Source: Candidatus Nanosyncoccus sp. (lineage in GTDB: Bacteria; Patescibacteriota; Saccharimonadia; Saccharimonadales; Saccharimonadaceae). Taken from it: DNA of 64,000 nucleotides. The notes under the pieces are model-generated. The model searched no databases, was not told the DNA's origin, and worked only from the letters and a program-made list of their open reading frames with translations. Positions 10,432 through 59,103 of the stretch are shown one piece after another; position 1 is the stretch's first letter, and each line of letters starts with the position of its first letter. Position numbers and translations under genes: made by a program. Location: NCBI GenBank assembly GCA_045546095.1, contig JAZQCE010000010.1, positions 5,712-69,711 of the forward strand, in the 5' to 3' direction.

Positions 10432-11526
10432 GTTGGGTTGCCCAATGTCGGCAAATCCACATTGTTTAATGCTCTCACAAACGCTGGCGCCCTCGCTGCC
10501 AACTATCCTTTTGCTACCATCGAGCCAAACGTCGGCATTGTCCCGGTACCAGATGAGCGGCTAGACATCCTCGCCAAAATGTACGAGACCGACAAAATCG
10601 TCCCAGCTACTGTCGAGTTCGTCGACATTGCTGGCCTCGTCGCAGGCGCCTCAAAAGGCGAGGGGCTCGGCAATAAATTCCTTGCCCACATCCGTGAATG
10701 CCAAGCTATCTGCCATGTGGTCCGCGCCTTCAAAAACGACGACATCCTCCGTGCCGACCAAAAACTCGTCGATGATATTGTAGCGCAAGCCAAGGACGAC
10801 ATAGACATCATTAACTTAGAGCTACAGCTCGCCGACGAAGAAACCAAAGCCAAAATCGCCGCCAAACGCAAAAAAGACCCTGGGGACGAATTCATCCCCT
10901 ACCTCACCGACAAGCCCGTCATCTATATGTTCAATGTAGACGAAAAAGGCCTCACCGACAATGACCTACAACAAAAACTAACAGAAGTCGCAAGAAATGC
11001 GCAGTCGAGGGACATAAAGGCAATACTTGCCGAAGGCAATTTTGCCGCCGAAGGGGCGAAGCGAGGTGATAAAATTTCTAATTTATCACCTCGCGAAGCT
11101 CCCGAGACGTGCATTTCTTGCGACTCAAACTGTATTTTTGTTGATGCCAAACTCGAAGAGGAGATGTCCGGCATGGACCGCAATGAGCGCAAAGAGTTCT
11201 TGGAGAGTTACGGGGTAAAAGAAGATGCACTCGGCGAATTAATCAAGGCCGCCTATGACGTCCTCGGTCTCCAATCCTTCCTCACCGCCGGCAAGAAAGA
11301 ATGCCGCGCCTGGACCATCAAAAAAGGCTCTACAGCACCCCAAGCCGCCGGTACTATCCATACCGATTTTGAACGCGGTTTCATCGCTGCAAATGTCTGT
11401 AAATACGCCGACTTAGCAAGACTCGGCTCCGAGAAAGCCGTCCGCGAGGCCGGCCTCCTCCGCACCGAGGGCAAGACTTACGTCATGCAAGACGGCGACG
11501 TTGTCGAATTCCGTTTCAACGTATAA
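10411..11526 (+). CDS. ychF: Redox-regulated ATPase YchF (with in-frame hairpin insertion)
   Basis: GIVGLPNVGKST, NYPFATIEPN, FVDIAGLV, TGS domain IHTDFERGFI, YVMQDGD. Confidence 0.97.
   Translation: MNLKIGIVGLPNVGKSTLFNALTNAGALAANYPFATIEPNVGIVPVPDERLDILAKMYETDKIVPATVEFVDIAGLVAGASKGEGLGNKFLAHIRECQAICHVVRAFKNDDILRADQKLVDDIVAQAKDDIDIINLELQLADEETKAKIAAKRKKDPGDEFIPYLTDKPVIYMFNVDEKGLTDNDLQQKLTEVARNAQSRDIKAILAEGNFAAEGAKRGDKISNLSPREAPETCISCDSNCIFVDAKLEEEMSGMDRNERKEFLESYGVKEDALGELIKAAYDVLGLQSFLTAGKKECRAWTIKKGSTAPQAAGTIHTDFERGFIAANVCKYADLARLGSEKAVREAGLLRTEGKTYVMQDGDVVEFRFNV
10986..11125. repeat. Hairpin element family C, copy in ychF
   Basis: Arms AGTCGCAAGAAATGC / GCATTTCTTGCGACT; core TCGAGGGACATAAAGGCAA...GCCGAAGGGGCGAAGC shared with 36082 and 40266. 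Confidence 0.85.
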
Positions 11527-17276: not shown

Positions 17277-17466
17277 ACGCTTGAAGAGTCTTTTTGTTAG
17301 CATAATGAGATTTAGACCAGATTTCTAAATTGTAAGTTTTGCAACTCGACAACGAAAAAATCTCCCCTAGCGAACTTTAGTTTGCGAATAAGGAGATTTT
17401 TTCTTGACTCGTGTTGCAAGTTTTACAATTTAGAAGTCCGAGCTAACAAAAAGACTCTTCAAGCGT
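17277..17466. repeat. 190-bp nested palindrome filling the radA-ruvC intergenic space
   Basis: Perfect 25-bp inverted repeat 17277-17301 / 17442-17466 enclosing an imperfect long stem 17320-17438. Confidence 0.9.
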
Positions 17467-36081: not shown

Positions 36082-36213
36082 AGTAATTGCTAAAACATAA
36101 CGTCGAGGGACATAAAGACAAAATCTCTGATTTTGTCGCCGAAGGGGCAAAGCTTTTGTGTAAATTTATTATCACATCGCGGAGCTCCCAAGACGTATGT
36201 TTTAGCAATTACT
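36082..36213. repeat. Hairpin element family C, copy upstream of pnp
   Basis: Arms AGTAATTGCTAAAACATA(A)CGTC / GACGTATGTTTTAGCAATTACT; family C core. Confidence 0.85.
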
Positions 36214-36362
36214 TTTTTAGCAAGCAATATCTGCCGTCTTCCCAATTGTTAATGTCGTATTTATTATACCAAGGCTTGCCAAATTAAGCAAAGTATGCTA
36301 TAATAAGCGTATGCGTTGTTTTGCATGTTTTCGCAACCGTCATACTAGAGAAAAGGAAAAGC

Positions 36363-36932
36363 ATGAGCAATTTTACCACAGTCGCAGAAGCAATGGCCAG
36401 AAAAATCAATTTTGAGGAGGAATGCAAAAATGGCATTGGTCGCCTGACCATCACGGGGCTCTCGTTCCCAGAAAACAAGACGTTCTATCCGCTCGACAAA
36501 ATCTGGAGCAGTATCCGCAAGCGCAACGCCGAGGCCTACGGGGTTTACACCACCGCAGTTTTTTCTTCGCCTAGCGCAGGAGTCATTCATGGGGAATTTT
36601 ACCCCAATCACGCCAACATCGACGAAGATGCTGCCGAGCAATATACCAAGCGTTTCGAGGATACCTTTTCCCTCCAGATTCTACTCTTCGCGGATGCCAT
36701 CATCAGCTTTCTTATGGATTACGAGCTAGGCTACACCGCCTATTGCAAATATCTCGAGAAAGCCGCTGGCAACCCCTCCCCCGAAGAATGCGGCTCCATC
36801 ATCGACGCATTTCTTCGTCGCTATCGTTTCAAGACCGACGAAGACGACGCCGAAAAAAGACGCCGTGAAGAACGCAGCCGGATGATCATGAACGCAAAAC
36901 TCATGGAATTCGCCTCGCTGATAGGATTCTAG
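36363..36932 (+). CDS. Hypothetical protein
   Basis: 190-aa ORF from ATG 36363, followed by a terminator. Confidence 0.7.
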   Translation: MSNFTTVAEAMARKINFEEECKNGIGRLTITGLSFPENKTFYPLDKIWSSIRKRNAEAYGVYTTAVFSSPSAGVIHGEFYPNHANIDEDAAEQYTKRFEDTFSLQILLFADAIISFLMDYELGYTAYCKYLEKAAGNPSPEECGSIIDAFLRRYRFKTDEDDAEKRRREERSRMIMNAKLMEFASLIGF

Positions 36933-36953: not shown

Positions 36954-36981
36954 AAAACCCGCCTAACTCTAGGCGGGTTTT
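36954..36981. terminator. Intrinsic terminator
   Basis: AAAAACCCGCCTA-ACTC-TAGGCGGGTTTT stem flanked by A and T runs. Confidence 0.8.
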
Positions 36982-37005
36982 ACTCTAGCTTGCCAAAAAA
37001 ACATT

Positions 37006-37129
37006 TCAGGAAGTAAATTTTGAGCAAGATACGAGGCAGCATTGAGCAACGCAAAGGAGACGTACTTAGCGTACGTCTCCTGCGTAGCGGAAATGCTAAC
37101 AAAGTAGCTTGCCAAAATTTACTTCCTGA
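37006..37129. repeat. Hairpin element family D, overlapping the rpsO stop codon
   Basis: Arms TCAGGAAGTAAATTTTG.GCAAG / CTTGCCAAAATTTACTTCCTGA; inner GGAGACGTAC/GTACGTCTCC stem. Confidence 0.85.
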
Positions 37130-37385
37130 GGCCGAGCTTGCTGATGGTTTTCTTATACAGCTCAAAATCAGTCTTCTCTAGGTATTTTAGCAACTTCTTG
37201 CGTTTTCCTACCATCTGGATTAAACCTCTTTTGGCCATAAAGTCATGTTTGTTCTTCTTCACGTGCTCAGTCACTTCGTGAATGCGCTCCGTGAGAATAG
37301 AAACTTGTACTTCAGGAGAACCAACATCCGCCTTACTCCGGGCGACCTTGGCAATAGCCTTGCTCTTATTCTCTTTTGTTATCAT
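37119..37385 (-). CDS. rpsO: 30S ribosomal protein S15
   Basis: DVGSPEVQVSILT, KHDFMAKRGL, YL....LGLRK. Confidence 0.97.
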   Translation of the reverse strand: MITKENKSKAIAKVARSKADVGSPEVQVSILTERIHEVTEHVKKNKHDFMAKRGLIQMVGKRKKLLKYLEKTDFELYKKTISKLGLRK

Positions 37386-37470
37386 TGCCCCATTATATCA
37401 CACTCTCTCCTATCTGTGAACCCCTTGAAGCATGAAAACCAGATCCGCCGTGTTGAGAAGACGATTCACA

Positions 37471-40265: not shown

Positions 40266-40405
40266 AAGACTTGCGCAAAATCGTAAAATCGAGGAACATA
40301 AAGGCAAAATCTCAGATTTTGCCGCCGAAGGGGCGAAGCTTTTGTGTAAAATTTCTAATTTACACAAAAGCGAAGCTTCCGAGGTTTACGATTTGCGCAA
40401 GTCTT
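40266..40405. repeat. Hairpin element family C, between the pgi and tRNA-Leu promoters
   Basis: Arms AAGACTTGCGCAAA(A)TCGTAAA / TTTACGATTTGCGCAAGTCTT; family C core. Confidence 0.85.
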
Positions 40406-48056: not shown

Positions 48057-50246
48057 TCACTCAAACACCGGCAAATCGTCCGGAAACGGGTCAAAATCCG
48101 ACTCCCCAAAATCATCAGCAAAATCCGTAAACCCATCGCCGTCACGATCACGATACCCCGCCGAGCCAGCCCCCATCCCGTACGGATCATACCCGAGCTC
48201 CATCAAAAACCTAGACGGCATATTATAATTCCTATCACCAAACGAAAACCGACTCGCCGCATAAGTCAAAAACAACTTCCGCATCGCCCGCGTCATCCCT
48301 ACATATGCTAGCCTCCGCTCTTCTTCTAGCTCCGCCGGATCATCTATGCACCTTGAACTCGGAAACAGCCCCTCTTCCATCCCTACAATAAACACTACTG
48401 GAAATTCCAACCCCTTTGCAGCATGCAGCGTCATTAAGGTCACAGAATTCGCCTCACTGCTCTCATCCACCGACGACATCAAAGTCGCATCCGCCAAAAA
48501 CTCCTCCAGCGTGTCATATTCAGCCGCATTCGTCGCTAGTACATCCAAGTTCCGCATCCGCTCTTCTGCCGCCGGTGTTCCATCATCCGTCAATGTCTTG
48601 AAGTCAAAATACTCTACAATTCGCCTTACGATTTCGCCCGAGTTTTCTACAGCTTTTAAATCAACCGGATCGGTCCTATTCGGGACCGTAAGCTTGGCCG
48701 AGCGGCCCTTGAGCGTGTCCCGAGTAGGACCATCCGGTTGATTTTGTATCCCCCTGATAAACCCAGTCAACTTCCTCAAAGCATTTTTCGCCTTAGCAGA
48801 ATTCAATACCTCCAGCAGATCCGCATCCAGCAGCGGGTTCTCACCCTTCATCACGTCCATTGCAGACAAAATCTTGTTTAGTGACACCTCACCAATCCCT
48901 GAAAGCACATTAGATACCACACGCGCCAGACTAACCGTATCTCGCTGATTTTGAATCACCTTTAATATCGCCAGCACGTCCTTCACTTCCTTGCGATCAT
49001 AGAATCTCACCCCGCCCACAATTTTATATGGTATATGCATCCCCATAAACGCTTTTTCAAAATTATACGACTGTGCATTCGTCCGATAAAGCACCGCAAA
49101 ATCACTAAAATCCGGATATTTCTTTTGCAAATTCAGGATTGTGAGCGCCACATAATTCGCTTCCTGCGCTTCATCACGCAGATTCTCAATATCCACCGGC
49201 TCACCATCCTCTATCTCCGTAAATAGAGTTTTTTCGGTCCGGGTTTTATTTTGATTAATGATTTTCTGCGAAGCCCGCAAAATATTCCCCGTAGAACGAT
49301 AGTTCTGCTCCAACTTGATTACCTTAGCCCCCGGAAAATCCTTTTCAAAATTCAAAATATTCGTAAAATCCGCTCCCCGCCATGAATAAATAGACTGCCA
49401 ATCGTCCCCCACCACACAAATATTTCGTTTTTCATTTACCAAAAGTTTTACAATATTATATTGCACGACATTAGTATCTTGATATTCATCAATCAGGATA
49501 TGTTTGAATCTTTTCTGCCATTTTTTTCTCACCTCAGAATGTTTTTGCAGCAGTTCTAATTCTTTCAAAAGCAAATCGTCAAAATCCAGCGCCCCTGCCT
49601 TTTCTTTTTCTACTTCATATTTCGCAAAAATTTTGGCAATTTTTTGTTGGTTTGGATAAATCGCTTTCGCCGCGTAGTCATCCGGCCCATTCCCCTGATT
49701 CTTTTCACTCGAGATAATCGACTGAATCGATTTTGGTTTCAAGTTTTTATTATCTGTAAACTTCAAATCTTTAATAATTCGCCGAATTAGCGATACCTGG
49801 TCGTCCATGTCATAAATCACAAAATTCCGATCCAGCCCTGCCGCATCCGCCTCAATTCGGAGTATCCGCACCGCAATACCGTGGAACGTCCCCATATAAG
49901 GCATGAAGCTACGGGGCGGCTCTTGGGGATTTGCGGGCAATTCCAAAAACGCTTCACTCGGGACCGTAAGCTCGGCCGAACGGCCTTGAGTGTGTCCCGA
50001 GTGAAGTGTTTTAGAATTGCCCACCAACCGCCACAGCCTCCCCCGCATCTCTCTCGCCGCCTTATTAGTAAACGTCACTGCGAGGATATCCGACGGCCGC
50101 ACACCATGAGCAATCAGATTAGCAATGCGGTGTGTTAAAGTTTTCGTTTTCCCAGATCCAGCTCCCGCCAATATCAACACTGGCCCCGTTAGGCACTCTA
50201 CCGCCTCCTTTTGCCGCGGATTCAATCCCTCCAAAATTTCATTCAT
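48057..50246 (-). CDS. pcrA: ATP-dependent DNA helicase PcrA/UvrD (two in-frame hairpin insertions)
   Basis: LAGAGSGKT, TFTNKAA, IDEYQD, QNYRST, TLHAAKGLEF, EERRLAYVGMTRA. Confidence 0.97.
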   Translation of the reverse strand: MNEILEGLNPRQKEAVECLTGPVLILAGAGSGKTKTLTHRIANLIAHGVRPSDILAVTFTNKAAREMRGRLWRLVGNSKTLHSGHTQGRSAELTVPSEAFLELPANPQEPPRSFMPYMGTFHGIAVRILRIEADAAGLDRNFVIYDMDDQVSLIRRIIKDLKFTDNKNLKPKSIQSIISSEKNQGNGPDDYAAKAIYPNQQKIAKIFAKYEVEKEKAGALDFDDLLLKELELLQKHSEVRKKWQKRFKHILIDEYQDTNVVQYNIVKLLVNEKRNICVVGDDWQSIYSWRGADFTNILNFEKDFPGAKVIKLEQNYRSTGNILRASQKIINQNKTRTEKTLFTEIEDGEPVDIENLRDEAQEANYVALTILNLQKKYPDFSDFAVLYRTNAQSYNFEKAFMGMHIPYKIVGGVRFYDRKEVKDVLAILKVIQNQRDTVSLARVVSNVLSGIGEVSLNKILSAMDVMKGENPLLDADLLEVLNSAKAKNALRKLTGFIRGIQNQPDGPTRDTLKGRSAKLTVPNRTDPVDLKAVENSGEIVRRIVEYFDFKTLTDDGTPAAEERMRNLDVLATNAAEYDTLEEFLADATLMSSVDESSEANSVTLMTLHAAKGLEFPVVFIVGMEEGLFPSSRCIDDPAELEEERRLAYVGMTRAMRKLFLTYAASRFSFGDRNYNMPSRFLMELGYDPYGMGAGSAGYRDRDGDGFTDFADDFGESDFDPFPDDLPVFE
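48657..48745. repeat. Hairpin element family A, pcrA copy 2
   Basis: Arms AAATCAACCGGAT(C)GGTCCTATTCGGGAC / GTCCCGAGTAGGACCATCCGGTTGATTT. Confidence 0.85.
49935..50022. repeat. Hairpin element family A, pcrA copy 1
   Basis: Arms GGGCAATTCCAAAAACGCTTCACTCGGGAC / GTCCCGAGTGAAGTGTTTTAGAATTGCCC. Confidence 0.85.
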
Positions 50247-52296: not shown

Positions 52297-52453
52297 AACA
52301 CAAATAGCATGTTTTTCGGGACCGTAAGCTTGGCCCGACCGTCGAAGGAGACGAGACTGCAGAAAGTTCACTTTCTGCAGCGAGCCGACGCTCAACGGGC
52401 GACTCAAAGAGTCGAGCGGCCTTGAGCGTGTCCCGAAAAACATCCATTTGTGT
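52297..52453. repeat. Hairpin element family A, long form, between divergent murA and pgk
   Basis: Same termini as the short copies plus an internal segment of about 75 bp; arms AACACAAATAGCATGTTTTTCGGGAC / GTCCCGAAAAACATCCATTTGTGTT. Confidence 0.85.
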
Positions 52454-55549: not shown

Positions 55550-55624
55550 GGCCTCTTAGTATAACGGTTAGTACATCGGGTTTTCATCCCGACAACGCGG
55601 GTTCGACTCCCGCAGAGGTCACCA
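55550..55624 (+). tRNA. tRNA-Glu(TTC)
   Basis: Cloverleaf, anticodon loop TTTTCAT, CCA end. Confidence 0.93.
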
Positions 55625-55774
55625 TAATTTAAAAGAAGACCCAAAGGGTCTTATTTTAAATTATGACGGTCTTTGCGGGAGGCGAAACCGCAAAGCGGGT
55701 TCGCCCTTTCAAGGAAATGAGTGAAAAAGAAAAAATTATTTTTCTTTTTCCGAATGACGCAGAAAGGAAAGAAT

Positions 55775-55863: not shown

Positions 55864-59083
<3,220 letters not shown>

Positions 59084-59103
<20 letters not shown>

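Follow-up and report, generated by a model that had tools for sequence, protein, structure and literature searches.

How does the end of a conserved ribosomal protein gene come to lie beside an inverted copy of itself? The window analysed here, 64,000 nucleotides of contig JAZQCE010000010.1 from Candidatus Nanosyncoccus sp., presents such an arrangement behind rpsO. The initial annotation had read it as an inverted target duplication, that is, as the work of an element that generated one of its own arms from the DNA into which it was inserted. In what follows, the genome of the window is designated G000, other genomes carry G numbers, and individual copies of the repeat family carry L numbers. 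The rpsO gene, which encodes ribosomal protein S15 (88 aa), occupies 37119-37385 on the reverse strand in the ORF list, ends in ...LGLRK with its stop codon TAA at 37119-37121, and has homologues in 39 of 41 related genomes (49-92% identity). A promoter-like site at 37392-37420 on the same strand, which is a consensus match only, combines TTCACA-17-TATAAT with an upstream TG and reaches 11/12 in a consensus scan.

On the rpsO strand, the whole of 37006-37129 folds into a single imperfect-palindrome hairpin of 124 nt, which in the RNA begins with the final 8 coding bases of rpsO and runs through the whole far arm, and which has orthologous copies in 14 other species. When 36985-37140 is folded on the rpsO sense strand, its free energy is -74.3 kcal/mol (z = -10), and none of 200 shuffled sequences is as stable. 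The outer arms at 37006-37022 (TCAGGAAGTAAATTTTG) and 37113-37129 (CAAAATTTACTTCCTGA) are 17 nt long, 90 nt apart and 100% complementary, and their sequence has two sites in the whole window, namely the arms themselves. The original observation, that the right arm covers the end of rpsO with its stop codon and that the left arm is its inverted copy, is thus borne out at 17 of 17 positions within one hairpin. The near (5') arm on the reverse strand is made up of 8 coding bases of rpsO, the TAA and ATTTTG (6 bases past the stop), and the far (3') arm of CAAAAT, a sub-family motif, and TTACTTCCTGA, the inverted copy of the rpsO end. At the centre stands a perfect 11-bp stem, AGGAGACGTAC-loop-GTACGTCTCCT (37055-37081 on the reverse strand, arms 37055-37065 and 37071-37081), which covaries around a variable loop among 103 distinct copies of the family; bulges and mismatches fill the middle of the hairpin between this stem and the outer arms.

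If rpsO had evolved its own terminator or attenuator on the spot, this too would put a hairpin between the stop codon and the end of the transcript. The locus has a separate canonical terminator, however, a two-way intrinsic one formed by the inverted repeat AAAACCCGCCTA/TAGGCGGGTTTT at 36954-36981, which lies 25 nt downstream of the hairpin, is common to rpsO and the convergent ORF 36321-36932, and was missed by a simple terminator scan. Relatives without the element carry an equivalent GC-rich terminator directly after the rpsO stop codon. The hairpin, a 124-nt structure with AT-rich outer arms, does not have the form of an intrinsic terminator and matches no Rfam family, and the existence of over 100 homologues, distributed behind 42 or more genes and across hundreds of independent assemblies, speaks both against an origin in place and against an assembly artefact. 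We attach practically no credence to either, and the concern raised initially that a local terminator might have produced the match can be set aside. The convergent ORF 36321-36932 (203 aa, opposite strand) lies between rpsO and pnp; in other taxonomic families of the order, a conserved leader of ~150 nt (with AAGCTTGTGCACATTAA) comes directly after rpsO and precedes pnp.

Which of the two arms is original can be read from relatives. The near arm is native to rpsO, since the same codons are present in relatives without the element, and the premise that the S15 end predates the insertion was therefore sound. The far arm is found only where the element is present: in 29 relatives whose rpsO loci lack the element, no inverted counterpart of the gene's end was found, the best match being 6-9 of 11 positions. 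These loci also bear on the suggestion that a hairpin already stood at the end of rpsO and that the core was inserted into its loop. IS1397 and ISKpn1 do insert into REP loops, and the position of the element at the centre of a locus-specific stem would suit such an origin, but the relatives without the element have no inverted copy and have a GC-rich terminator directly after the stop, and an AT-rich 17-bp stem overlapping codons is unlike the local terminators. We regard a pre-existing hairpin as very improbable.

The rpsO hairpin is one copy of an old multi-copy family of imperfect palindromes, ~125-135 nt in length, in Saccharibacteria. The family was followed in a genus sample of 369 genomes of Ca. 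Nanosyncoccus-like Saccharibacteria and in an order sample of 301 genomes from 217 genera, all of the genomes compared being metagenome-assembled. BLAST of the hairpin interior against the genus sample returned near-full-length copies after rpsO in ~11 other species, together with further copies at loci unrelated to rpsO. A covariance model (R1) was built from an alignment of 37 cores and its consensus fold, 17 of whose 26 pairs carry compensatory changes. This model has matches in 153 of the 369 genus genomes, many of them with at least 11 copies; in the order sample it matches 170 of 301 genomes, which represent 131 of 217 genera. Within such counts, orthologous copies should not be taken as independent. 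No description of the family was found in the literature searched on Saccharibacteria and Patescibacteria, an Rfam search of the region gave only chance-level matches, and the whole window at gathering score gave tRNAs only. An order-wide hairpin family has apparently gone undescribed.

At rpsO, R1 delimits a family core of 93 nt at 37022-37114 on the reverse strand (G000:C10:42733-42825) with a score of 106 bits in the forward and 28 bits in the reverse orientation, and the rpsO stop codon lies 7 nt ahead of the core start, within the helix. The rpsO copy thus agrees with the family in scoring in one orientation only, with a same-strand stop directly ahead; family orientation is unambiguous, at 53-107 bits forward versus at most 33 bits reverse. 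Across 103 distinct copies, 25 of 29 core pairs have had both bases changed with pairing kept in some copies (652 cells), and 91% of core cells are paired versus 33-45% with partners slid. The core has fixed bulges and mismatches and a conserved G-U pair on the sense strand. Wobble counts stand at 70:64 for G-U to A-C, or 70:33 when a doubtful loop-closing pair is omitted, and do not speak clearly for a constraint at the level of RNA. Many distant copies from other taxonomic families of the order (among L155-L194) are Y-shaped, with a 5' branch containing a GC-GNA-GC mini-hairpin ahead of the long hairpin, and a perfect locus-specific stem encloses branch and hairpin together. Some of the L155-L194 copies lie beneath long opposite-strand open frames, which are possibly spurious.

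G000 itself holds only two copies of the family by R1. The idea of a multi-copy element within this genome was dropped when BLAST gave self-matches only, and R1 then found one diverged second copy at 58980-59071 on the reverse strand (53 bits, E = 7e-13, R1 E-values being rough). This copy begins where an HtpX-like protease gene ends, at the stop codon 59084-59086, and has its own outer stem, AAGAAGTYAAAACGCGG. The family matters for annotation in that it creates false N-terminal extensions and spurious ORFs: at 58955-59090, this second copy is read through as a false N-terminal extension of the next gene (ORF 57991-59103). Outside the window, on contig C18 of G000 just downstream of 44616, TAATATTTCTAATATTTTGGCGTAAAATATGG with the sub-family motif AATATTTTGGCG follows the presumed rpmG (L33) and may be the remnant of a lost copy.

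Copies in the genus are placed after genes. With an upstream ORF of at least 60 codons required, a same-strand stop lies 1-28 nt ahead of the core in 93 of 106 genus copies, versus 7% at random positions in G000. The upstream genes fall into at least 42 unrelated groups; named by reading of their C-terminal sequences, not by database matches, they include those for S15, S18, S1, L21, L33, EF-P, Fpg, Ndk and RNase H, as well as Map, ClpP, YchF, RuvB, PyrG, ArgS, MscL and HtpX. At loci where G000 lacks the element, the orthologous gene has its native stop codon at the same place, which implies that the element starts 0-3 nt after an intact gene, and a separate terminator usually lies downstream of the family copy. 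Genus copies accordingly sit in the 3' untranslated region right after the stop, always oriented like the gene and upstream of the real terminator, and from this arrangement they are expected to be co-transcribed with the upstream gene and predicted to fold on the sense strand. Outside the genus, a stop is found within 35 nt in only 13 of 40 sampled copies, many of which have an extra 5' branch, and the stop-codon rule may be specific to the Nanosyncoccus-like lineage.

Several known classes of repeat share some of these properties. The REP, BIME and REPIN sequences of Enterobacteria and Pseudomonas are likewise dispersed, extragenic and hairpin-forming and often occur just after stop codons, inside transcripts; for REPs near stop codons, effects on translation and on the stability of the mRNA have been reported, and REPINs are long imperfect hairpins of ~100 nt. 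The present family also consists of dispersed extragenic hairpins with many copies per genome, G000 having only two. It differs in that its core is a single 93-nt structured unit with fixed bulges instead of two short REPs, and in that its outer arms appear to be copied from the host gene. A partnership with a RAYT gene (Y1 HUH transposase) was considered and rejected: a search with PF01797, in which the positive controls were detected, gave matches above the cut-off in only 4 of 20 high-copy genomes, so that the gene is missing from the other 16 and from G000. ERIC/IRU and YPAL of enterobacteria and the Correia elements (NEMIS) of Neisseria are co-transcribed imperfect palindromes of ~100-170 nt that often abut or overlap stop codons and fold into long RNA hairpins that RNases can process. 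These elements carry their own terminal inverted repeats, whereas the terminal helix of the present family is locus-specific; Correia makes a TA duplication, whereas the present family has no consistent duplication; and they show no sequence relation to it, nor is there a match in Rfam.

Terminal inverted repeats shared among copies, as in MITEs, are also absent, the outermost helix being locus-specific and inclusive of host codons, and only inner modules are common to the copies. No consistent direct repeat of fixed length was found at the junctions of 14 typical copies, and a target-site duplication, including a TA duplication at stop codons, was rejected because of these inconsistent junctions; no transposase gene was noticed beside the copies examined. 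Integron attC sites resemble the family as imperfect palindromes lying directly after an ORF in a fixed orientation, with functionally important unpaired bases on one strand. In attC, however, conserved outer core sites (RYYYAAC ... GTTRRRY) enclose a variable centre, whereas here the centre is conserved and the outside variable, and attC core-site motifs are absent from the family by reading. The Rickettsia palindromic elements (RPE) are, as here, selfish palindromic repeats in a reduced genome, and other hairpin families of the window resemble them in lying in frame inside genes, for example pcrA; the family behind rpsO follows stop codons in 93 of 106 genus copies, unlike RPE, which lie inside genes. 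By these tests, the rpsO hairpin is not a MITE, a REP-RAYT element, an attC site, a terminator or a member of an Rfam family.

The outer arms contain a part carried by the element and a part derived from the gene. Beyond the core, most copies have a conserved outer module, 5' ..GTTCTCnnGG-CG... opposite 3' ...CATCCnnGAGATAAC.., which contains an asymmetric loop, a 1-nt bulge and a fixed C-T mismatch. The sub-group to which the rpsO copy belongs has the bulge-adjacent module (A/T)AATTTTGG, and because this module is found behind several unrelated genes, the ATTTTG of the 17-nt arm probably came with the element. Only the outer 11 nt, TCAGGAAGTAA, stem from rpsO itself and are locus-specific. 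Recurrence of the arm at unrelated loci had been named at the outset as a ground for abandoning the target-derived reading; the inner part of the arm, (A/T)AATTTTG(G), does recur on copies at unrelated loci, but this leaves ~11 nt that are truly specific to rpsO.

Nor is rpsO alone in having its end mirrored. When outer helices were compared by anchored alignments, all three stop bases were mirrored in 35% of copies versus 2.4% with arms swapped between copies, and the stop plus at least 6 coding bases in 11% versus 0.4% in the swapped control. Gene-end mirroring recurs at other, unrelated genes: it has arisen independently at the genes upstream of L118 (where ~20 coding-end bases are mirrored, stop included), L101 (pyrG), L121, L064 and L051, and at the locus of a gene ending in ...IDEMSL, most of 9 species have a mirror of the last Leu codon (CTC/CTT/TTA/TTG) together with the stop. 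The derivation of the far arm from the gene, and its co-evolution with synonymous and stop-codon sites, are real and recurrent.

This co-evolution is seen in detail at rpsO. In the 26-pair outer stem of 14 aligned rpsO hairpins, 94.6% of cells are paired, versus at most 50% with partners slid, and 9 of the 26 pairs have changed on both sides, a number reached by none of 500 shuffles. The third position of the last Lys codon forms an A-U pair in 7 species and a G-C pair in 5, and the third base of the stop codon (TAA in 11 species, TAG in 3) covaries with the far arm. Across the 14 species, the far arm matches the changes of Lys AAG/AAA, Arg AGG/AGA and stop TAA/TAG in rpsO, and the matched synonymous changes that the initial annotation had proposed as a check are therefore present. 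Three species have a compensated 1-bp insertion in the outer stem and G139 has a compensated dinucleotide change; single mismatched intermediates also occur in some species (A-C in G133, G114 and G121). Relative to the G000 copy, the copy of G128 lacks essentially only the 11-nt mirror of the coding end.

A tree built on the coding sequences of rpsO has 15 filled and 10 empty sites interleaved in one clade (100/99 support), all deeper relatives and outgroups of which are empty, and strongly supported branches force at least five changes between the filled and the empty state. Since the rpsO copies share private features such as GCAAGMTAC arms, we infer that the element was inserted once, long ago, in the common ancestor of some 25 species and has since been lost at least five times. 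The site of G006 (TAAATTTTGGCAA...) was taken up as a candidate pre-insertion site and rejected, as the tree places this genome inside the filled clade; its empty site is probably a deletion remnant and hence a secondary loss. In the comparison with element-less relatives that had been proposed, none of the 29 relatives has a mirror copy; empty sites within the clade, such as that of G006, probably postdate the insertion. Beyond the far arm lies one copy of a direct repeat, 13 nt in G000 (TAGCTTGCCAAAA, at 36986-36998 and 37105-37117, enclosing part of the element) and 26 nt in G139. Downstream of rpsO in G176 (L043) are two full tandem copies and a partial third, and ahead of the second copy stands a decayed duplicate of the final ~30 nt of rpsO. 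These direct repeats probably represent a decayed tandem duplication of the rpsO end together with the element and do not resemble a target-site duplication.

Taken together, the reading that we hold with moderate confidence is that of a 3'-UTR hairpin repeat resembling REP and ERIC, the 3' arm of which is rewritten from its 5' arm by fold-back template switching. The conserved core would be kept and the outermost helix rebuilt locally, so that the 3' arm would become the reverse complement of whatever lies 5' of the core, stop and last codons included. The likely route would be intrastrand fold-back template switching during DNA synthesis (quasi-palindrome correction or extension), for which only the coding arm could serve as template, being shielded by selection on the protein; in addition, an intact helix may itself be selected for. 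At rpsO, an 11-nt templated extension into the gene would have taken place, and the far arm would have been updated repeatedly as rpsO changed.

Two copies in one genome, L045 and L053, bear directly on such copying, their cores being identical at 92 of 93 positions. L053 keeps the conserved mismatch and asymmetric loop of the family. The 3' arm of L045, in contrast, is the complement of its own 5' arm and of the flank after the stop at 17 of 17 positions; the family motif is lost on the 3' side only, element-borne sequence has been overwritten, and the 3' arms of the two copies differ at ~8 of 17 positions. In a similar way, the difference between G128 and G000 would go back to one fold-back extension that was either made or lost. 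In template-switch (quasi-palindrome) mutation, fold-back copying makes an exactly complementary arm and can extend a hairpin into its flank, a process that fits L045 versus L053, G128 versus G000 and the compensated indels. These comparisons, along with the multi-base changes, favour templated copying from the 5' to the 3' arm, although point mutation and selection could also yield compensatory changes. Work on quasi-palindromes concerns a mutational process, whereas here the process would apparently have acted repeatedly on a dispersed repeat with coding sequence as a protected template. Template switching at inverted repeats is treated in PMC5941160 and PMC8604942.

In a true inverted target-site duplication, only the core would be mobile, and the insertion itself would make the far arm from the target flank in one step, for example by fold-back priming at the target. 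Such an event would explain why no far arm is seen without the element, and the perfect locus-specific outer arms that surround at least three different structured cores in the window, as well as distant order-wide copies of the rpsO-hairpin family, hint at a shared mechanism of this kind. In most genus copies, however, outer modules conserved across the family (GTTCTCnnGG ... GAGATAAC), complete with their fixed mismatch and bulge, reach as far as the stop codon, which means that more than the core alone is mobile. At a single orthologous rpsO insertion, re-matching of the arms went on after speciation, the copying in L045 overwrote sequence that the element had brought with it, and neither a consistent target-site duplication nor a neighbouring transposase was noticed at the copies examined. 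What survives of the original claim is that the far arm is an inverted copy of the native rpsO end that occurs only with the element; its manufacture in a single insertion step agrees less well with the data than repeated fold-back copying or repair does, and we consider a one-step duplication unlikely, although a step at the time of insertion may have played a part.

A functional mRNA 3' hairpin shaped by point mutation and compensatory selection alone, in which the stop codon must be base-paired for function, would account for the order-wide conservation of the core, its heavy covariation and conserved sense-strand G-U pair, the strict sense orientation, the placement at stop codons and the single mismatched intermediates (A-C in G133, G114 and G121). 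Compensated indels and multi-base changes would be hard to reach stepwise, however, and the ~8 of 17 differences between the 3' arms of L045 and L053, whose cores are nearly identical, point to one event. Similar perfect arms also occur on copies beneath long opposite-strand open frames (which may be spurious) and in 5' regions, where a role at the 3' end of an mRNA would not apply. Selection without templated copying therefore seems improbable to us.

Fold-back template switching may nevertheless operate alongside a function in the RNA, candidate roles being mRNA 3'-end protection or processing and coupling to translation termination. The hosts are ultra-small, host-dependent bacteria with genomes of ~0.8 Mb and almost no spare DNA, and the retention of a ~130-nt hairpin behind many core genes throughout the order argues for either a real role or a very effective selfish strategy. 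The rpsO locus provides an unusually clean natural record, in which a non-coding arm tracks the synonymous and stop-codon changes of a ribosomal protein gene, and makes fold-back template switching directly testable as a maker and maintainer of RNA hairpins. A bolder proposition, which we put forward only tentatively and judge unlikely, is that hairpin elements spread or are repaired by self-templated fold-back synthesis, each writing an inverted copy of the last codons of its host. To our knowledge, such synthesis has not been described as a maker of inverted target duplications. It would place the stop codon in a long conserved RNA helix and could tie translation termination to the fate of the mRNA in dozens of housekeeping genes.

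The window contains several other hairpins. Those at 10986-11125, 36082-36213 and 40266-40405 share a branched core (CGAGGGACATAAAG...GCCGCCGAAGGGGCGAAGC...) and form a family distinct from that of the rpsO hairpin; a perfect locus-specific stem of 14-18 nt closes each of them. Two of these copies are found not after stop codons but upstream of pnp and upstream of pgi, in 5' or divergent-promoter regions. A third family, with GGGACCGTAAGCT in common, is represented at 49931-50027 and 52309-52443. Its copy at 49931-50027 lies in frame inside pcrA, in a variable linker, and corresponds to ~25-30 residues that are absent from the orthologues of G006, G002, G017 and G012. This copy was considered as a cleaner test of which arm is native and was rejected, as the native arm is not assignable in a variable linker. 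At 17277-17466, a 190-nt hairpin has perfect outer arms of 25 nt and a second, inner pair of long arms. Finally, a 46-nt inverted repeat at 55597-55691 is 83% complementary, and its left arm is formed by the 3'-terminal part of a tRNA gene (55550-55621, from the T-arm to CCA); here, too, a gene's 3' terminus would have been copied in inverted form.
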